64,000 bases of DNA from Planctomycetota bacterium (lineage in GTDB: Bacteria; Planctomycetota; Phycisphaerae; UBA1845): the NCBI GenBank assembly GCA_024276605.1, contig JAJRWX010000033.1, positions 19,541 to 83,540 on the forward strand, given 5' to 3'. The stretch's first letter is position 1; each line of letters begins with the position of its first letter. A program made the position numbers and the translations under genes. The notes beneath the pieces are model-generated. The model did not search any database and was not told where the DNA came from. It saw only the letters and a program-made list of their open reading frames with translations. Shown here one piece after another: positions 356 to 41,905 of this stretch.

Positions 356-908
356 AGGATTTCATCAACTCCGTTAAGTATTCGACCATGGTGCCCGGAT
401 GAAACTACACCCTAACGCACGATTCTTCTTACTATGTTTGGACAATACACCACCCATCACCATCGTAGGATAGCATGGCAAATACACTAGCAAAACGAGA
501 AAAGTAAAGCAATTATTTTGTACGAGTTTGTCGTTACTATCCGGTTGCATATGGACGAAAAAACATACGAACCCCTCAGATACCGCTGTAATCCGTAATT
601 TTTCATCGTCTCTGATATCCCTGCTGATTGTCAACATTAAGCACAGCGCATTGACAGCGTCGTCGCACCAACGACAAAATGGCTACGGGCCTGATTGATA
701 GGCACTCAATAAACTTAGCGACTAAATGTAGCGAGCCGTATGTTTTTCTTTGCGCAGTGCCTCGAACTAATTGTACACCTTCAGTAATCGGCGACGCTGT
801 GCTTGAACGTTAGCCGCTCTAGCTAACAATACGGTCATTGAGTGACCTCGATAGCAGGTAGAAAATTATATGACAAGAGTAACAGATCAAAACCAGAGAG
901 GATGCCGC

Positions 909-2165
909 ATGAAACACCATATCACAAAACAATTGTCTGCAGGGATAGTCGCCTTGACTGCCTGCATCATGCTATCGGCGTGCGCCGCAAGCCGTACACC
1001 GGAGTGGGGGCAATGGGGTGGACCTAACCGAAATTTCATCGCCGACGGCACCGGCTTGTCCACTTCGTGGCCGGCTTCCGGCCCGAAAAAAATGTGGAGT
1101 CGAAAACTGGGCGACGGCTATGCCACTATCCTAGCCGATCGGGGACGATTGTACACCATGTATCGTGATAAAGAAAACGACGTCATTGTAGCACTCGATG
1201 CAAAGACCGGTAAGACCCTATGGGAAACGCCGGATCAAGCGCCGCCGGTCGAAGGTCAAAGCGTTGCTTTTGGTTCCTGCCCGCGTTCAACACCGCTTAT
1301 CGTCGGCCATCGGTTATTCACTATCGGCGCCTCAGCCAGACTCAACTGTCTGGATAAAAATAGCGGTAACGTTCTATGGACACACGATCTGGTCAAAGAC
1401 TATTCACTAAAAGTTCCGGGACACGGCTACGGCGCTAGCCCGATTGCCTACAAAAACCTCGTCATCCTACCTGTCGGCGGTGAAGGTCATGCCGTTGTCG
1501 CTTTTAACCAAAACGACGGTAGCGTGGCCTGGGAGAGTCAGGACTTTGACTCGGATTACCCCTCTCCCATTCTGATTGATCTTGAAGGTGAAACGCAGCT
1601 CATTATCGCTATGGGAAATAAACGATGTGGATTAAATCCACGTACAGGAGAACTGAAATGGCAAGTGGAATTACCTGAGTCCGCCGGCGCTATGATGAGC
1701 ACACCTGTATGGGGTGACGACGGCATCCTGTTTACCTCCGCCGAATACAGCGACGGTAGCCGAGCCTTTCAGATCACGAAAGAGGACGGTGAGTACAAGG
1801 CTGAGGAACTATGGTATACACGCAAAATGCGCGTGCAACATGGCAGTTATGTACGCGTCGGAGACTATGTGTACGGCTCCAGCGGCAGCTCGACGGCCCT
1901 GCTCACCGGCATCAACGTCAAAACGGGAAAAGTCGCTTGGCGTAAACGCGGTTTCAAGAAGGCAAACTGCCTCTACGCCGACGGTAAGCTCATCATATTA
2001 GACGAAGACGGTACGCTGGCCATCGCCACTGCCACCCCGGATAATCTCGAGATTCACTCGAAGGTAAAAGTGCTGAAAATGCGCGCATGGGCTGCACCCA
2101 CACTGGTCGGCACCAATCTATACATCCGAGACCAAGAAACCATCATGGCCTTGGACCTAAGCTAA
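909..2165 (+). CDS. PQQ-like beta-propeller repeat lipoprotein (BamB-like, planctomycete-expanded family)
   Basis: Lipobox-like LSAC, W..WGGPNRN motif and repeated ALDAKTGKxxW blades. Start chosen at MKHH (909); the ORF extends to 870. Confidence 0.85.
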   Translation: MKHHITKQLSAGIVALTACIMLSACAASRTPEWGQWGGPNRNFIADGTGLSTSWPASGPKKMWSRKLGDGYATILADRGRLYTMYRDKENDVIVALDAKTGKTLWETPDQAPPVEGQSVAFGSCPRSTPLIVGHRLFTIGASARLNCLDKNSGNVLWTHDLVKDYSLKVPGHGYGASPIAYKNLVILPVGGEGHAVVAFNQNDGSVAWESQDFDSDYPSPILIDLEGETQLIIAMGNKRCGLNPRTGELKWQVELPESAGAMMSTPVWGDDGILFTSAEYSDGSRAFQITKEDGEYKAEELWYTRKMRVQHGSYVRVGDYVYGSSGSSTALLTGINVKTGKVAWRKRGFKKANCLYADGKLIILDEDGTLAIATATPDNLEIHSKVKVLKMRAWAAPTLVGTNLYIRDQETIMALDLS

Positions 2166-33563: not shown

Positions 33564-35333
33564 ATGGATATGCCTGCTTTGTCGCCAGAAACTCCCGCGC
33601 GAGTAGACCAGGGTGATTCATATACGGATAGCCCGCACCTTGTAGTAGAACCCGAGTCATCCGAGACGCTGGTTGTTGGTCGTAATTCTCAAGACCATCT
33701 TACACACGAATATGCAGATCACAGCCGTGAAGATCGTGAATTAGGGCGTGGGCGCTCAGGCGTTGTTTTCCTGAGTCGTGACGCATTTGGCCGCAGTACG
33801 GCCCGTAAAGTCTTCGGTGCCTCGGGACTCACTAAAGCCGTTCAATATGCTTTCCTCGGCGCCCCCAACCCCTACATGTGGTGCGAGCCGGCTGCCAAGG
33901 CTGCTTTTTTGCGGCGAAGGATACTATCTGAGTTGGTTCACTATTGGTTTGGTGACAAATTGCGCGTCGCACATGCTTACGATTACGGTTGGAACGATCG
34001 TTATCGCGCTTTTGAAATGCGATGCGAACTCATCACCGGTCGACATGTCGCGTTGCATCATGGCCAACATCCGACAGAAACAAAAGAGCTGCCCGAGATT
34101 ACAAAACAAATCATGGAACCGCTTCAGCAGCGTCTGACTGAATCAGGATTTGATGGATTAGTATGGCAAGCAGGCCTTGGCAACCCCGTAGCACTGAATA
34201 ACTTCATGCGCTATACCTCTCCCAACAGTCGTTCACATCAGTGGGCGTGGATCGATTTGGAATCCGGCGTACCGGCACTTATTCCCATGAACCCGTTGGA
34301 TTTACTTTCTTATTACCTGCCTAAATCGTTTCACCATCGCCGCCCGCTCTTTGACGATGTGGATGTGGACAAATTGAAACGCTATGTCAAATGCCAATCC
34401 AACGCGCTGATCGAACATCTTGGTGAATCGGCTGTGCGCCAGTTGGAGACTGATGTTGATAGGCTTGCTTCCTGCCAGGAAAAATGGAAAGGTTTATCCC
34501 GGCTCGAAGGGAGTATCGGTTACCAAGTGTCACGCGGGTCCATCAATCGGACTCAAGCTCAGTGGTATGCACAACATCCCTGGTCATGGTACAAACGAGA
34601 GTTGGGACGAGTAGTCCGATCGATTCCATCACGTATTACCCATAGTGCACCGCGCCTCATCACCTATCTCGCAAACATCCGGATAGGACGACTATTGAAA
34701 ACATCATGGATGGCCATGCGTTCCCAGACCTATAGAGAATTTCTCACCCGTGAGTATGTTTCGACGAGAATCGATATCTGGACGGCCCGTGAACAATTGT
34801 CGGACCAACAAGCTCAACAACTTCGCAGCCACCTTGATGCGGAAGAAACTAATTCGTACATGACCGATTTCAGCGTCCAACTAGCGACCAAACCACTAGT
34901 CAAGTTGCTTCAATTCTGGATCATGCCCATCATATGGATGGCGGGTATCATCGATCCCACGCTACTCGCTGCATTTCTAGTGGCTGGTGGGTCTATGGTA
35001 CGTACCGCTTATACGCTCATGCGTATCGCACAAAATTCGTTGGCTGATCGTGAGAAACCCTGGGTTGCGCTACTTGTTGGTACGATTCCGGTTATCGGTA
35101 ATCTAGCCTTCCCTGCACAGATCGTCGCCAGTGGAAATAAAGAAGATCGTAAACTGGCACGCTTCATTATGCACGATACATTTAGCCGATTGGGGCAATG
35201 GCTACCGATTTGGGGAGGTCAAGATACACTGACCGAACACGTGATGAACCGTCTGCCCAATATATTTCTTCGCCCCATGAGGTCGGATGATAGTCCCCTA
35301 CATCTATCGCACCCTGATACGTCAACGATCTAA
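33564..35333 (+). CDS. Hypothetical protein: divergent kinase-like N-terminal domain plus C-terminal membrane segments
   Basis: ELGRGRSGVVF (Gly loop), ARKVF, ALNNF, WIDLESG; hydrophobic helices around aa 445-520. Confidence 0.6.
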   Translation: MDMPALSPETPARVDQGDSYTDSPHLVVEPESSETLVVGRNSQDHLTHEYADHSREDRELGRGRSGVVFLSRDAFGRSTARKVFGASGLTKAVQYAFLGAPNPYMWCEPAAKAAFLRRRILSELVHYWFGDKLRVAHAYDYGWNDRYRAFEMRCELITGRHVALHHGQHPTETKELPEITKQIMEPLQQRLTESGFDGLVWQAGLGNPVALNNFMRYTSPNSRSHQWAWIDLESGVPALIPMNPLDLLSYYLPKSFHHRRPLFDDVDVDKLKRYVKCQSNALIEHLGESAVRQLETDVDRLASCQEKWKGLSRLEGSIGYQVSRGSINRTQAQWYAQHPWSWYKRELGRVVRSIPSRITHSAPRLITYLANIRIGRLLKTSWMAMRSQTYREFLTREYVSTRIDIWTAREQLSDQQAQQLRSHLDAEETNSYMTDFSVQLATKPLVKLLQFWIMPIIWMAGIIDPTLLAAFLVAGGSMVRTAYTLMRIAQNSLADREKPWVALLVGTIPVIGNLAFPAQIVASGNKEDRKLARFIMHDTFSRLGQWLPIWGGQDTLTEHVMNRLPNIFLRPMRSDDSPLHLSHPDTSTI

Positions 35334-35511: not shown

Positions 35512-36831
35512 ATGCCTGACCATACATCATCTTCACGCCAGTATGTTGTGCCTTGTCTGCTCTTCGCAGCCATTTCGATTTTCTACACCATAGCCGCCTG
35601 TTTTTTTCCTATGGTCTATATTTGGGCTACCTATGAAGACCTGTTTGGCGAGTGGGTCCAATTTTGGTCCGTGATGATTGCCATGGCTGTGGCCGTTCGC
35701 CTGGTATTCATACGATCACGATTTCGCTGGTTTTTCGGCTTATTAGCGCTAAGTTGCCTGTACGTAGGCATGGAGGAAATCTCATGGGGTCAACGTATTT
35801 TCGGCTTCTCCTCCCCGACCTACTTCCGAGCCAATAACCTCCAAGGTGAAACCAATCTACATAATTTTTTCACCGGGCCGTATGGCACTACATTAAAAAG
35901 AATAACTACCTACGTGTTAGCTTTAGCATTAGCGAGTTACGGTCTTGTCTATCCCGCAGCCATACGTCTGAAAATCAGAATGGCCTGTTGGTTTGAAAAA
36001 CGTGGCGTCGCTGCCCCGCCTTTATATCTTTGGCCATTTTTTGCAGGTGCCGCACTATTGGAGCTGGGCTTTTTTCAGTTTAACGAAGCTGAGGTCGCTG
36101 AAGTAATGGTAGGCATAGGCTTGGCGTTAACTACTGTTCACTACATGTACATACTTGGTAGCCATAACAAACAGTCTACTTTTACTGATACGGCAACAGC
36201 AACCGTACCAAGTAACACGCGTAGCCTGCTAAAATATCAGGGTGCCGTCGTTGTACTCACCCTCATGTTCAGCGCCGGGACGACAATGGCTATTTACTCT
36301 TCTTCCAGAGGCGCAGCCATCGATCGTCGAATTGAAAATGGCGTGAAGAAATTCGCCGGTCGATACGCACGCCATCATGCCTGGGAAACCGCCATTACGT
36401 TGTACAAACGGGTTCAAAAAAATAATCCGCAGAGCGTAACAGTTTTACGCCAGCTAGCAGAGTGTTACATGGAGCTTGGCGAACATGAAACATTTCTCAT
36501 GTATTTGAATCAGGCCTTAGACATTGACCTTCAGCGATATAAAGAAAAACCTCGACGGGCATCGGTAAACCGTTCACTCACACGAACCTATCGTTTGCTA
36601 GGTGATGAGGAACGTGCACAGAAACATTTACAACGTGCACTTCGTATCGGTGTGAAACGGGTTAACAAGCAACCATCCAGCGCACCAGCTGCGTACTCGC
36701 TCGGAAAAACCTACTCGTTGGCAGCTCGATATAGTGAAGCCTTGCAACATCTCTCACGCGCATACAAAATGAATCCCACGTCTAAGAAATACCGTAAGGC
36801 CTATTACGCCGCCTTGAGAAAAGTGTCCTAA
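35512..36831 (+). CDS. Multi-TM membrane protein with C-terminal TPRs
   Basis: YED..GEW.Q, MEEISWGQRIFG, NLQGETNLHN family motifs, then TPR-like helices. Confidence 0.8.
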   Translation: MPDHTSSSRQYVVPCLLFAAISIFYTIAACFFPMVYIWATYEDLFGEWVQFWSVMIAMAVAVRLVFIRSRFRWFFGLLALSCLYVGMEEISWGQRIFGFSSPTYFRANNLQGETNLHNFFTGPYGTTLKRITTYVLALALASYGLVYPAAIRLKIRMACWFEKRGVAAPPLYLWPFFAGAALLELGFFQFNEAEVAEVMVGIGLALTTVHYMYILGSHNKQSTFTDTATATVPSNTRSLLKYQGAVVVLTLMFSAGTTMAIYSSSRGAAIDRRIENGVKKFAGRYARHHAWETAITLYKRVQKNNPQSVTVLRQLAECYMELGEHETFLMYLNQALDIDLQRYKEKPRRASVNRSLTRTYRLLGDEERAQKHLQRALRIGVKRVNKQPSSAPAAYSLGKTYSLAARYSEALQHLSRAYKMNPTSKKYRKAYYAALRKVS

Positions 36832-36838
36832 CTACTTT

Positions 36839-37786
36839 CTATGTCGGTTCGTGACTTTGTAACCGATCGATTTCATGCAAAATCGACTCCCAGTTCGGCC
36901 TCATATGGATCAACATGGGAAAAATTTGTCGGACGATGCCCTGCTTGTCGATGTAGTAGATCGTCGTGCGCTCGTATCGTGGGGTTTTCTCTTTGTTCAC
37001 ATCTGCAACAATATCAAAAGGCGGTGACTTCTTAAAATGCTTCAGTATCAGCTTAGCCGATTCCCATGCCTTGTCTTCCTGAGAAACCGCAATAACGACG
37101 GTATCACGCTTGGTGAATTCATCATACATACTCTGCAACTGAACCAGTTGCGTAGCACAAAACGGTCACCAGTAAGCACGATAGGTAGATACGATAACGT
37201 TCTTCTTCCCCAAGTAATGACTTAACGTCACCGAACGATCCTGAAAGCTTGTTATCTTGAAATCGTCGGCCTTGTCGCCAATATTCAAAACGTCTAGCGT
37301 ACCCCACGTTGAATCCGTGGCTGCCACCTCTCGCGCTCGCGCGTCAGGCTTAAGAGGGAGTGCCAATCTTTTGCGGAAAAAATATCCCGTATTATCACCC
37401 TTCCTATTCACATATCCTAATACGGTCAGACCGAACTCCTCAGCCATATTCGGCCATTGTTCAATCACAAATGATAAGCGTGTACGCGACTCCTTGAGAA
37501 GTTTCTCATAAGGAGAATGGATATATTCATTGTTCTTCAGGTCGGTCATGGATGTGAGTACTTTTCCAAGAAGCTTCACGTTGGGAGGGGCATGGATTTG
37601 CAATAGCGGCGCAGATAGCCCGGTTTCAGTTGTCGACCACCCGTCACCAGTAATTACCTCGATTACGATTTGTCCACGCTGTCCGGCTCCCCAATCTCTT
37701 GATATGATCTTGGCAGATACCTGAACGGCGTTATCCGGCACCCCCGCACCCAACACTACAGCCAATGTAATCATGGATGAAATCAT
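36839..37786 (-). CDS. Exported AhpC/TSA (peroxiredoxin-like) selenoprotein with UxxC and an N-terminal DsbD-N-like domain
   Basis: ORFs 37166-37786 and 36839-37138 are in frame across a single TGA (37166-37168), reading YRAYW-U-PFC. SECIS-like hairpin immediately 3'. Confidence 0.85.
37135..37151 (-). promoter_or_regulatory. Candidate bacterial SECIS hairpin
   Basis: GCAACTG-GTT-CAGTTGC perfect stem beginning 14 nt after the UGA, with G in the apical loop. Confidence 0.7.
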
Positions 37787-38149
37787 TTGTCCTCCAGTTC
37801 CTCAAAGACGCCAAGTCCACAAACTCATTCGATCACTACCCTCTATATCACCATGTTTCTTCGACACAATGCACAGTCATGTCACATGTCCACTCTAAAG
37901 CACCACAAGCAAGATAATATGGCCTGCTGACCCAGAATACGACGGCAAGCAAAGTATATCTCATCCCCATTCACACTATAACCTATTATTATACAAGTAC
38001 TTATACGATCACAAAAACAGGCAATACTATCTGATCTCAATTGTCGTCAACAGTCATGACACCGTTTACCTAAGTATCAGCATCATAGTCTGATGAAGAA
38101 TCTGCTATCAAAGCTCCGATAATAACCCGCAGAGTCTAGTGCCCCAAGA

Positions 38150-38800
38150 ATGGAGTCAAGGGACATGGGATCAGAAGATCCATCTCAGTTGCGTGCTCGG
38201 ACAGAGGAAAGTCGCCGACGCCCCTATGTGATTAGTGAGATACACGTCTGTTTTGACGGTGTGGGTGAGATCAAGGAGACTAAATCCACCGGCCCTGTGC
38301 ACCTTTACATCGAAGCGACGGATCAACACGGAGACATAGCCCCTTAGTTTGATGATTTTTGGTGGACAGGTCTTCTACAACGTTGGATCAATCGCATGGT
38401 TACGATCTACATCGAGGCCACTCCGCACGCCGTACTTCATCCTGTCGTATTGTATCATATGGATATGCTCGATCGTGTGGCTCCCCGTTGGCGTATGATC
38501 GCGTTAACGTATAGTAGTGACTTTGTGAACGATGATGCCGTCGATGCGATCGCTCAAGCCAGCTACCATGAAGTACGCTTTATGGATGGTTCTCGACCGA
38601 TTACTAACAATCTAGATCATCGCATATCCCATAAAGTCCAACTGGACGTGCTATTCGGCGATATTCGTCGTATACAGGCGCGTATCGGCGCCACGCGTCC
38701 TATTTTGACTCGGCTACCATCATCAGTTACGACTGCACGAGATTCTCAATTCAACGACAGTCGAACACACAAAAACGCGACCTCGCAGCAGACGCGCTAG
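38150..38800 (+). pseudogene. Hypothetical gene interrupted by an in-frame TAG at 38345-38347
   Basis: ORFs 38150-38347 and 38396-38800 share a frame. The linker reads ..GDIAP*FDDFWWTGLLQRWINRM.. with no further stop. Confidence 0.6.
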
Positions 38801-40205: not shown

Positions 40206-40838
40206 ATGGCTAGCCGAGCGCCATTACCGGATTCGATAGAGATGCCACCTGCATGGCGTCGGCACATGATCGTATGCCTACTGATCGGCTTGGGCGGTCT
40301 AACGGTCGTCTGTAATCGCACCGCTGTTGTCACACCCTCCGAAAACGATTGGGAACGTTATCATAACCAATCGTTTCGCGTCATGCGCGTTGTGGACGGC
40401 GATACGCTGGACATCGACGCCCCAGACGGTGTCAAACCAACGACACGCATACGTTTGTGGGGCGTAGACACGCCGGAGATAGCTAGAGGAAAAAAAGCCG
40501 GCATGTATTTCGGTGAGCAAGCATCAACTTTCGCCAAAAGCGTACTAGATAATCGCAGCGTGCATGTTGTCCTTTCCCCAAAAAACACGCGCGGCAGATA
40601 TGGGCGACTGCTCGCATACGTATTCCTTGAGCGCGGCGGCGACATGTTCAATGAAATGCTCATTTCGAAAGGATACGCCTACGCGGACCTACGTTATAAA
40701 CACCATTACTACAACCAATTTCGCGATCTCGAAAAGCGTGCCCGCCGAAGCGGCGTTGGCTTGTGGTCTCACGTGACGCTCGAGAAAATGCCAAAGTGTA
40801 AACAGCGGTATGAACGCAAACACAATAAGCATGAATAG
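40206..40838 (+). CDS. Thermonuclease (SNase) family protein, membrane-anchored
   Basis: RVVDGDT, IRLWGVDTPE, RYGRLLAYV, EKRARRSGVGLW. Confidence 0.93.
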   Translation: MASRAPLPDSIEMPPAWRRHMIVCLLIGLGGLTVVCNRTAVVTPSENDWERYHNQSFRVMRVVDGDTLDIDAPDGVKPTTRIRLWGVDTPEIARGKKAGMYFGEQASTFAKSVLDNRSVHVVLSPKNTRGRYGRLLAYVFLERGGDMFNEMLISKGYAYADLRYKHHYYNQFRDLEKRARRSGVGLWSHVTLEKMPKCKQRYERKHNKHE

Positions 40839-41092: not shown

Positions 41093-41905
41093 ATGCAGCG
41101 CGCATGTTGGGTTCATATCATTAGCGGGACTTTCCTGATCTCCACACCCCAAGTCGTGTTCGGATCGAGGATTACAGTTGACGTACAATTATCGCCGGAC
41201 ATTATCGTGGATTCGGTTACGCGGTGTATCTGCTTCCGTCTTTTTGATTGTTTCCAAAATTACACGGAACAATGTTTGGAAATTACGTTTATTGATGGCA
41301 TCGCGCAAGGCGTTTCTTTTTATGCCGAATCCCGCACCTACGAGTGCATAGAAGCAAGAGACCCGCTGCATACATTACGATCGTTGTCGGAAGTGGTGTG
41401 CGTAGATGATCGATGTTCGGCCAACTTCATCGATGATCCGGATTCCGGCGGTAACTGGCTCATCAATGGAAATATGAATGATGATTTCGTTATCGATATC
41501 CGTGATGTGGCCGTGTACAAATCTGAAATTCTTCGCGGCGCTGATTACCCCAATGGTGATACGACTTGCTCTACTCAATCACCCCACGGAGATGTTAATG
41601 GGGACGGTCGTGTTGATATTTTGGATCACGACATCATAGCCTTTGAACACTTTCTGTCTGAACAGAAAGCGGGATGCTGGAGGACAGTCTGCGACTGTCT
41701 AAATCCCGAACTTGACAGCGACGGTGACAATGTCCCGGACTGCGTCGACTTATGTCCCGACGTAGACGACACGATATTCGCCCCACAATGCGCCGATGCC
41801 GTTCCAACGATTTCTGAATGGGGTGTTCTCGTTCTAGCGCTGTTGCTTTTGATTACCGGTAAGATTTATTTCGGACAAGGGCTTCTATACAAACCTTCGG
41901 TGTAA
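41093..41905 (+). CDS. Secreted dockerin-like/EF-hand protein with TSP3-like motif and IPTL-CTERM signal
   Basis: GNMNDDFVIDIRD and GDVNGDGRVDILD, DSDGDNVPDCVDLCP, VPTISEWGVLVLALLLL. Confidence 0.8.
   Translation: MQRACWVHIISGTFLISTPQVVFGSRITVDVQLSPDIIVDSVTRCICFRLFDCFQNYTEQCLEITFIDGIAQGVSFYAESRTYECIEARDPLHTLRSLSEVVCVDDRCSANFIDDPDSGGNWLINGNMNDDFVIDIRDVAVYKSEILRGADYPNGDTTCSTQSPHGDVNGDGRVDILDHDIIAFEHFLSEQKAGCWRTVCDCLNPELDSDGDNVPDCVDLCPDVDDTIFAPQCADAVPTISEWGVLVLALLLLITGKIYFGQGLLYKPSV

Follow-up and report, generated by a model that had tools for sequence, protein, structure and literature searches.

A probable two-domain UxxC selenoprotein of Phycisphaerae that gene callers split in two

The locus, its orthologues and its database relatives

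The stretch of DNA analysed here (64,000 nt, hereafter the window) belongs to a Phycisphaerae (Planctomycetota) genome of 4.5 Mb in 110 contigs, 96% complete, and carries on its minus strand, at 36839..37786, what is most probably a single selenoprotein gene: a complete coding sequence of 315 codons and a TAG stop, with one in-frame TGA as its selenocysteine (Sec) codon, to which orthologues align over the full length. Translation table 11 splits this sequence into a 206-aa open reading frame (ORF; 37166..37786) and a 99-aa ORF (36839..37138), while reading the TGA as Sec gives a single product with one recoded codon, U207, in the context VSTYRAYW-U-PFCATQLVQLQ. An earlier note, made from the sequence alone, had proposed a selenoprotein gene split at a single in-frame TGA; the codon is indeed present at 37168..37166 (37166..37168, minus strand), and the read-through length of 315 aa given there is reproduced. 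The TGT codon of Cys210 (37157..37159, minus strand), which supplies the second residue of the UxxC motif, is invariant among the 15 orthologues described below, and Cys210 is presumably the resolving cysteine. A Shine-Dalgarno-like GGAGGA (37790..37795, minus strand) lies 3 nt upstream of the ATG (37786..37784), and most orthologues likewise have a purine-rich box ahead of the aligned start. A longer N-terminus is impossible, because an in-frame stop sits five codons upstream of this ATG. In one orthologue (L030; G014:C473, ~905-910, minus strand) the frame opens right after a TAA with CCG CTG ATC and shows no ATG, GTG or TTG at its opening; an AAGGAG box stands just upstream, and the start codon may be CTG or ATC.

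Full-length orthologues were found by a six-frame search in 15 of 41 related genomes (the genome of the window included), at 34-100% identity. Each has one in-frame TGA, and in all 15 this TGA falls at the aligned W-U-P-[FSY]-C. A second search, in which one genome per species was covered and the alignment served as the query, returned 49 loci from species-representative metagenome-assembled genomes (MAGs), and every one of the 49 has TGA at the Sec codon; the same contig search with a single protein as the query confirmed no relative. Nearly all of the 49 loci come from MAGs labelled Phycisphaerae, Phycisphaeraceae or Planctomycetota, and outside Planctomycetota labels there are three records named only 'bacterium' and one Pseudohongiellaceae. 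This last family member (L082) sits in a MAG labelled Pseudohongiellaceae bacterium, a gammaproteobacterial name, and the label could be a binning error or reflect a gene transfer. By a second tally, 44 of the remaining 48 loci bear the name of Planctomycetota or one of its subgroups and four are named only 'bacterium'. Mean pairwise identity is 57.7% after the TGA and 58.7% just before it within the same domain, compared with 38.7% in the N-terminal domain (N-domain). The residues invariant among the 15 orthologues include Y202, R203, A204, W206, U207, P208, C210, Q213, L214 and L217 around the Sec codon, and further on E237, D262, P290 and R296.

The database relatives are split in the same way. 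A profile of the 15 orthologues was compared with 1.84 billion representative proteins, a library with a single representative for each cluster at 50% identity, and gave 134 matches at E 1e-30 or better; the best 150 matches were tallied by hand. Among these, 114 stop at profile position 205 with their own last residue, the Trp before the TGA, nine are C-terminal pieces of 88-112 aa that start at positions 211-229, and three are full-length two-domain proteins (P0008, P0016 and P0068). For the alignment 80 of the 150 were picked by hand, namely N-domain forms of ~197-216 aa, the three full-length forms and P0113. Since 76 of these 80 aligned homologues end in [TMY][YF]RAxW, the split call is the rule for the family, and the suspicion that an ORF caller had cut one gene in two is borne out: the pieces are never separate genes and share one conserved frame. 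A residue other than Sec or Cys at the TGA position, which the earlier note considered a possible refutation, occurs in too small a minority to count as one, namely the three distant full-length homologues, which carry Ser or Glu there and keep the second Cys (L-S-V-P-C in P0008, T-S-P-P-C in P0016 and D-E-T-F-C in P0068).

The hairpin and the selenocysteine machinery

Directly downstream of the TGA we find a bacterial Sec insertion sequence (SECIS) element (37128..37158, minus strand), which is supported by its fold, its conservation and its compensatory changes, and which fits the published constraints for bacterial SECIS (bSECIS) elements. The apical hairpin (37151..37135) is composed of GCAACTG (37151..37145), the loop GTT (37144..37142) and CAGTTGC (37141..37135), that is, a perfect stem of 7 bp closed by a 3-nt loop. 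The gap between TGA and hairpin is exactly 14 nt (37165..37152), as had been noticed before, and the loop GUU stands 21 nt from the UGA. In the predicted fold a lower stem of 5 bp flanks the apical hairpin, and the element lies within the codons for residues 211-221, its two arms being the codons of Gln213-Leu214 and Gln216-Leu217. A 63-nt stretch reaches -22.7 kcal/mol (z = -3.48), a value equalled by none of 200 shuffles, and for hairpin plus lower stem, taken over 45-50 nt, the energy is -13.3 to -14.6 kcal/mol. Perfect 7-bp hairpins with loops of 3-9 nt number 53 in the whole window, and the chance expectation for such a hairpin is ~0.02 within the 22 nt in which a SECIS has to begin. The consensus bSECIS model, as given in the accessible part of its source, has an apical loop of 3-9 nt, a stem of 4-16 bp, a minimum free energy of -7.5 or lower, a G at the first or second loop position, usually with G or U after it, and 16-37 nt from the UGA to the loop (PMC13188914). 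The window hairpin agrees with this model in its 7-bp stem, its GUU loop, its 21-nt spacing and its energy.

The stem is conserved with compensatory changes, examined both in the 15 orthologues and in a larger set of 53 distinct 48-nt sequences, which unites the results of the two orthologue searches (overlapping and from the same species collection) with the window. Stem pairing is intact in 96.0% of the 371 cells of this larger set, as opposed to 7.5-39.9% when the 3' partners are slid by one to three columns, and both-sided changes are found in four of the seven stem pairs (37 cells). The third base of Gln213 (CAA or CAG), for instance, pairs with the first base of Leu217 (TTG or CTG) as A-U in 30 sequences and as G-C in 23, and is unpaired in none; because both changes are synonymous, selection on the protein cannot explain this coupling. 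As closing pair 28 sequences have G-C and 11 have C-G; the other 14 have no pair there, which gives them a 5-nt loop starting with GG.

The Sec machinery, whose presence the earlier note had listed as a check, is complete in the same genome. A tRNA-Sec was detected at 64.8 bits (cut-off 47) and is called SeC(tca) by ARAGORN, and selA (568.8 bits), selB (309.9 bits) and selD (367.5 bits; G000:C110:14656-15579, locus L018) all exceed their curated cut-offs. The selD gene has one in-frame TGA of its own, so this organism probably makes its selenophosphate synthetase as a selenoprotein. Moreover, selA exceeds its cut-off in all 15 genomes that carry the gene, and the gene is found in none of the six genomes where selA does not, a co-occurrence test of little power because selA is present in 35 of the 41 genomes. 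TGA also serves as an ordinary stop: it ends 7 of the 32 long frames of the window, and 4 of the 14 complete orthologues terminate with it, hence the genetic code is standard. A rough scan of the window for TGA-interrupted frames listed 11 others, none with a supporting motif.

Domain structure, leader and genomic setting

The C-terminal part of the protein (~residues 166-311; 36854..37291, minus strand) is a thioredoxin-fold domain of the AhpC/TSA type with TlpA, ResA and Bcp among its likenesses, as judged from Pfam, PDB profile and Foldseek comparisons. The AhpC/TSA domain assigned in the earlier note is recovered by Pfam AhpC-TSA (PF00578) over residues 169-287 at E 9.6e-19 (68 bits, cut-off 26), with Redoxin as a weaker match. 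The family profile finds in the PDB Bcp1 (3drn, 1.2e-14), a thioredoxin-family protein with WCPYC (3hdc, 2.3e-13) and ResA (1.7e-12), all on positions 150-311, and Foldseek agrees. No NCBIfam model exceeds its cut-off, the best being ResA (NF002854 and relatives; 40.3 bits against 170). The model of the full protein has a predicted local distance difference test (pLDDT) score of 85.2 and a predicted template modelling (pTM) score of 0.84, and places a strand at residues 196-202 ahead of a helix at 208-226, with the active site W206-U207-P208-F209-C210 at the start of the helix. Because of this order of strand and helix, Sec207 stands at the helix N-terminus like the first Cys of a CxxC motif, which is where the TGA had been placed from the sequence alone. 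The invariant P290 would be the cis-proline of the thioredoxin fold.

The N-domain (~residues 20-160; 37307..37729, minus strand) is free of Cys and forms an all-beta, immunoglobulin (Ig)-like sandwich in an AlphaFold model of residues 20-160 alone, built with 81 family sequences (pLDDT 93). The gene has no Cys codon for residues 1-206, and the 81-sequence alignment has no conserved Cys column. Pfam scans of the N-domain in the 81 members (E up to 1) gave only chance-level matches and no family, DsbD_N included, and DsbD_N was likewise absent when the N-domains of five orthologues were scanned separately with the threshold relaxed to E 10. Foldseek against the PDB returned nothing at E 1e-3 or better; the best match is a lipoprotein of a Bacteroides conjugative transposon (E 1.1e-3), and structures of the DsbD N-terminal domain (nDsbD) are among the weak rows (E 4e-3 to 2e-2, template modelling score 0.33-0.39). 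In two fold searches ranked by Z-score, macroglobulin, cohesin, pilin and adaptin-ear domains lead with Z of 7.6-8.4, which indicates a common arrangement, and nDsbD is not in the top 50; in the second of the two, macroglobulin, pilin and cohesin domains head the list at Z 7.6-8.1. The ESM Atlas offers only unnamed clusters (0.86-0.87), of lead level at most. The DsbD-N-like domain that the earlier note had described therefore holds only as a generic likeness in fold: an Ig-like sandwich of ~120-140 residues does adjoin a thioredoxin-fold domain as in DsbD, but the window family has no DsbD_N match and no conserved Cys. A redox-active Cys pair is required in nDsbD. Going by the models, the N-domain is a generic Ig-like beta-sandwich that belongs to no named family.

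Ahead of the N-domain stands a hydrophobic, signal-peptide-like leader, residues 1-19 (MISSMITLAVVLGAGVPDN; 37730..37786, minus strand), supported by hydropathy and by a pLDDT below 50 for residues 1-13. It contains a 15-residue hydrophobic run with a hydropathy maximum of 2.39 and has no Lys or Arg. Of the 81 family members 76 possess a hydrophobic leader, and the more distant members P0084, P0076, P0068 and P0056 have canonical ones.

Paralogues with other N-terminal parts were found in the same genomes. One of these (L036; G017:C74, ~560-1390, plus strand, TGA at 1118) is a selenoprotein candidate with a classical signal peptide, in which a domain of ~170 residues with CLDCH (CxxCH, haem-c type) is followed by a thioredoxin fold with FSRAHWUPPC; its hairpin GCAGCUC-GGU-GGGCUGC starts 14 nt past the UGA, the same spacing as in the window gene. 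A second candidate selenoprotein (L025; G019:C6, 498-1416, minus strand), divergent from the orthologue in genome G019, has membrane-type hydrophobic segments, FYRGFWUPFC in a thioredoxin-like domain and a different, G+C-rich stem after the UGA.

The gene stands by itself. A convergent gene, which encodes a membrane TPR protein, stops at 36831, 7 nt off. On the upstream side a gene-free interval of ~600 nt precedes a divergent 134-aa ORF (38396..38800, plus strand) and an aspartokinase gene; of the 49 other loci only 4 have a relative of this 134-aa ORF upstream of the gene. Neither this ORF nor a 589-aa ORF (33564..35333, plus strand) has a Pfam match. One DsbD_TM homologue, a possible electron donor, is encoded elsewhere in the genome, and nothing ties it to the gene. 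A scan of 36500..38500 found four promoter-like sites, with 3.6 expected, and no terminators, and is uninformative. Further along the window, a 270-aa protein with a Dockerin_1 match and an IPTL-CTERM sorting motif (41093..41905, plus strand) adjoins a staphylococcal-nuclease-like protein (40206..40838, plus strand).

Alternative explanations, proposed mechanism and known systems

We put the probability at about 0.88 that the stretch is one gene, encoding a 315-residue UxxC selenoprotein of Phycisphaerae that gene callers split, and we are more confident still that Sec is actually inserted at codon 207. If the TGA were a real stop instead, the locus would encode a protein of 206 residues, with or without a separate small gene behind it, as suggested by the two ORFs of table 11 and by public calls that list the 206-aa and ~100-aa pieces as separate proteins. 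Such a stop would, however, sever strand 1 from helix 1 at the active site of the thioredoxin fold, while the downstream piece keeps the same frame in 15/15 and 49/49 loci and is as conserved as the upstream one. Moreover, the earliest possible start of the 99-aa ORF is a TTG nine codons past the TGA, inside helix 1, and both the hairpin and the Sec machinery would be left unexplained. We regard a real stop as very improbable, and a pseudogene arising through a nonsense mutation as even less credible. A pseudogene would account for an in-frame stop where the domain normally has Cys, but the conservation data refute it: the same codon would have to be hit in 53 distinct sequences, which come from different species and share as little as 33% protein identity, with no other stops or frameshifts and with purifying selection on both sides; a shared assembly artefact is excluded, since the MAG sequences diverge. 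Hardly more plausible is decoding of the UGA as Trp, Gly or Cys, whether by an altered genetic code or by near-cognate read-through. Any code that assigns an amino acid to TGA keeps the frame open, and Cys would fit the motif chemically, yet the use of TGA as a stop in the window and the orthologues shows a standard code, the genome has a dedicated tRNA-Sec with SelA, SelB and SelD, and a conserved hairpin with compensatory changes lies at SECIS distance.

Two further alternatives accept the selenoprotein and concern its chemistry and its location. It might be a selenium-dependent peroxidase of the peroxiredoxin type: AhpC-TSA is the top Pfam match, the solved relatives include Bcp1, Bcp4, AhpE and both 1-Cys and 2-Cys peroxiredoxins, NCBIfam peroxiredoxin models including PrxU match at E ~3e-8, and Sec in general reacts well with peroxide. 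The motif, however, is the W-U-x-x-C of the thioredoxin/TlpA type, and ResA leads the NCBIfam matches. Canonical peroxiredoxins have PxxxT/SxxC, with the peroxidatic Cys or Sec last, and this motif is absent in the window protein. In the alignment with Bcp1 (3drn) Sec207 lies on the T of T-x-x-C, with Arg203 in place of the Pro four residues earlier, and Cys210 takes the peroxidatic position; hence the site is of the thioredoxin/TlpA kind and not that of a canonical peroxiredoxin. Known selenoperoxiredoxins are also given as TxxU, not UxxC, in the part of the source available to us (PMC13188914). Judging from the motif and the alignments we lean towards disulfide reductase chemistry and consider a peroxidase rather unlikely. 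As for location, the protein could be cytoplasmic, or held in the membrane by an uncleaved N-terminal anchor, and not be periplasmic at all; the window gene, like 70 of the 81 members, has no basic n-region, it shows no clear AxA cleavage site, and its hydrophobic run is only ~15 residues long. The hydrophobic N-terminus is nevertheless shared by nearly all members and takes a canonical form in the distant ones, classical signal peptides are found in single-domain Cys relatives and in the CxxCH-domain paralogue, and the closest folds to the N-domain are mostly extracellular proteins. A non-periplasmic protein therefore seems a minority prospect, and export, as far as leader sequences can tell, is likely.

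Several observations weigh against the selenoprotein reading or some part of it. No RNA sequencing run covers the stretch, and three DNA runs of one study cover part of it. Neighbour clustering over 50 loci (the window's own and the 49 others) revealed no conserved neighbour that would hint at a substrate or partner: the gene's own pieces and antisense frames aside, no cluster occurs in more than 11 loci, and the 11-locus cluster and one 8-locus cluster consist of frames overlapping the gene itself. Homologues with Cys at the TGA position, which the earlier note had asked for, do exist as single-domain proteins with classical signal peptides (WCPFC, in P0150 as RAHWCPFC and in P0006 as RGYWCPFC), but among 53 loci and the full-length two-domain proteins of the 150 best matches none has Cys at the Sec site. 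A Cys form may hide inside a cluster, as the library has one representative per 50% cluster and only the best 150 matches were tallied. The covariation score of the stem was reached by none of 500 shuffles, a control that overstates its significance because the sequences are related; the slid-partner control is free of this weakness. The best PDB and NCBIfam matches mix Bcp and other peroxiredoxins with ResA/TlpA reductases at similar scores and do not tell the two chemistries apart. Lastly, the signal peptide that had been read from the sequence stands as a hydrophobic leader, but a basic residue at positions 2-8 occurs in only 11 of the 81 members and not in the window gene.

Under the selenoprotein reading, the SECIS hairpin within the coding sequence would recruit SelB carrying Sec-tRNA(Sec), and Sec would be inserted at the UGA of codon 207. 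The protein would then be exported and act as a thiol:disulfide oxidoreductase, in which the selenolate of U207 may attack a substrate disulfide (or a sulfenate or peroxide) and Cys210 may resolve the intermediate to a selenenylsulfide. The selenenylsulfide would be re-reduced, probably outside the cytoplasm, and a membrane electron shuttle of the CcdA/DsbD type is our tentative suggestion for the electron donor. The beta-sandwich probably binds the substrate or a partner and takes no part in the redox chemistry. We further offer, with some diffidence, the possibility of a Sec-obligate family spread across Phycisphaerae, in which a previously undescribed Cys-free Ig-like domain aims the Sec centre at a specific extracytoplasmic substrate. 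The residues at the Sec site would suggest that Cys cannot replace Sec here and that the Ser and Glu forms have changed or lost their chemistry. The helix-1 peptide Q-L-[VG]-[QE]-L and the SECIS encoded in it are tied to each other, and since the combination also occurs on the CxxCH-domain paralogue, the two may represent a module that is reused on different N-terminal domains.

The findings bear on annotation, for databases list the window gene and more than 100 of its relatives as 200-aa 'hypothetical proteins', cut short, and as orphan pieces of 100 aa, and a family model that reads TGA as Sec would mend this across Phycisphaerae. They also strengthen the case for an investment of marine Planctomycetota in thioredoxin-fold selenoproteins. 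As no two-domain Cys form was found, the family offers a test of when Cys cannot replace Sec, and in its stem the same codons are clearly constrained both as RNA and as protein and change together through synonymous substitutions. Knowledge of how selenoproteins are made is unchanged.

Selenoproteins of the Prx-like UxxC kind are already known, as the earlier note had said. Thiol:disulfide oxidoreductases of this type (PF00578) are predicted in Geobacter, Syntrophus and Desulfotalea and, as 'Prx-like 1', in marine metagenomes, where they are abundant, and have been catalogued since 2005-2008, according to the accessible parts of these sources (PMC1794560, PMC2398784, PMC13188914). The window family shares with them the AhpC/TSA-type fold, the Sec as first residue of UxxC, the SECIS directly downstream within the coding sequence and the usual mis-annotation as two ORFs. 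It differs, in a comparison made by description alone, in its extra Cys-free N-domain of ~140 residues, for which there is no Pfam or NCBIfam model, and in its near restriction to MAGs of Planctomycetota and Phycisphaerae. In the Global Ocean Sampling (GOS) data, Prx-like 1 is reported with 2,740 Cys homologues against 225 Sec forms in the portion of the source available (PMC2398784), whereas the window family yielded no two-domain Cys orthologue. The same portion of that source describes GOS selenoproteins in which a thioredoxin fold is fused to other domains (Unknown_2/Prx-like 2 and Prx-like 3/Unknown_3); there too an uncharacterised domain is joined to a Prx-like UxxC selenoprotein, but the fused domains have conserved Cys, which the N-domain of the window family does not, a distinction drawn by description alone (PMC2398784).

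Planctomycetes associated with Porphyra belong to the same phylum as the window gene and have redoxin-type selenoprotein candidates, thiol-disulfide isomerase-like thioredoxins and one peroxiredoxin, that are likewise annotated as two genes. As far as the available portion of that account goes, these candidates come from other lineages, their closest matches carry Cys, two of the three have no reported SECIS and a two-domain architecture is not mentioned; this comparison, too, is by description alone. No description of the two-domain family was found in the accessible parts of the selenoprotein literature examined, supplements aside. Compared with the TlpA/ResA/CcmG reductases, the window protein has Sec in place of the nucleophilic Cys, an added N-domain and a ResA score of 40 against 170 bits, and its gene is unlinked to cytochrome c maturation genes. 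Its likeness to these reductases lies in the WCxxC-type motif at the start of helix 1, the conserved Pro in the opposite loop, the similar domain size, the place of ResA as top NCBIfam match and among the best PDB matches, and the presence of a CcdA/DsbD-type membrane protein in the genome. Seen beside these systems, the two-domain form from marine Phycisphaerae is so far without a family name and its accessory domain is unnamed, while the enzyme type is well known, and both its mechanism and its enzyme class are ordinary for bacterial selenoproteins.

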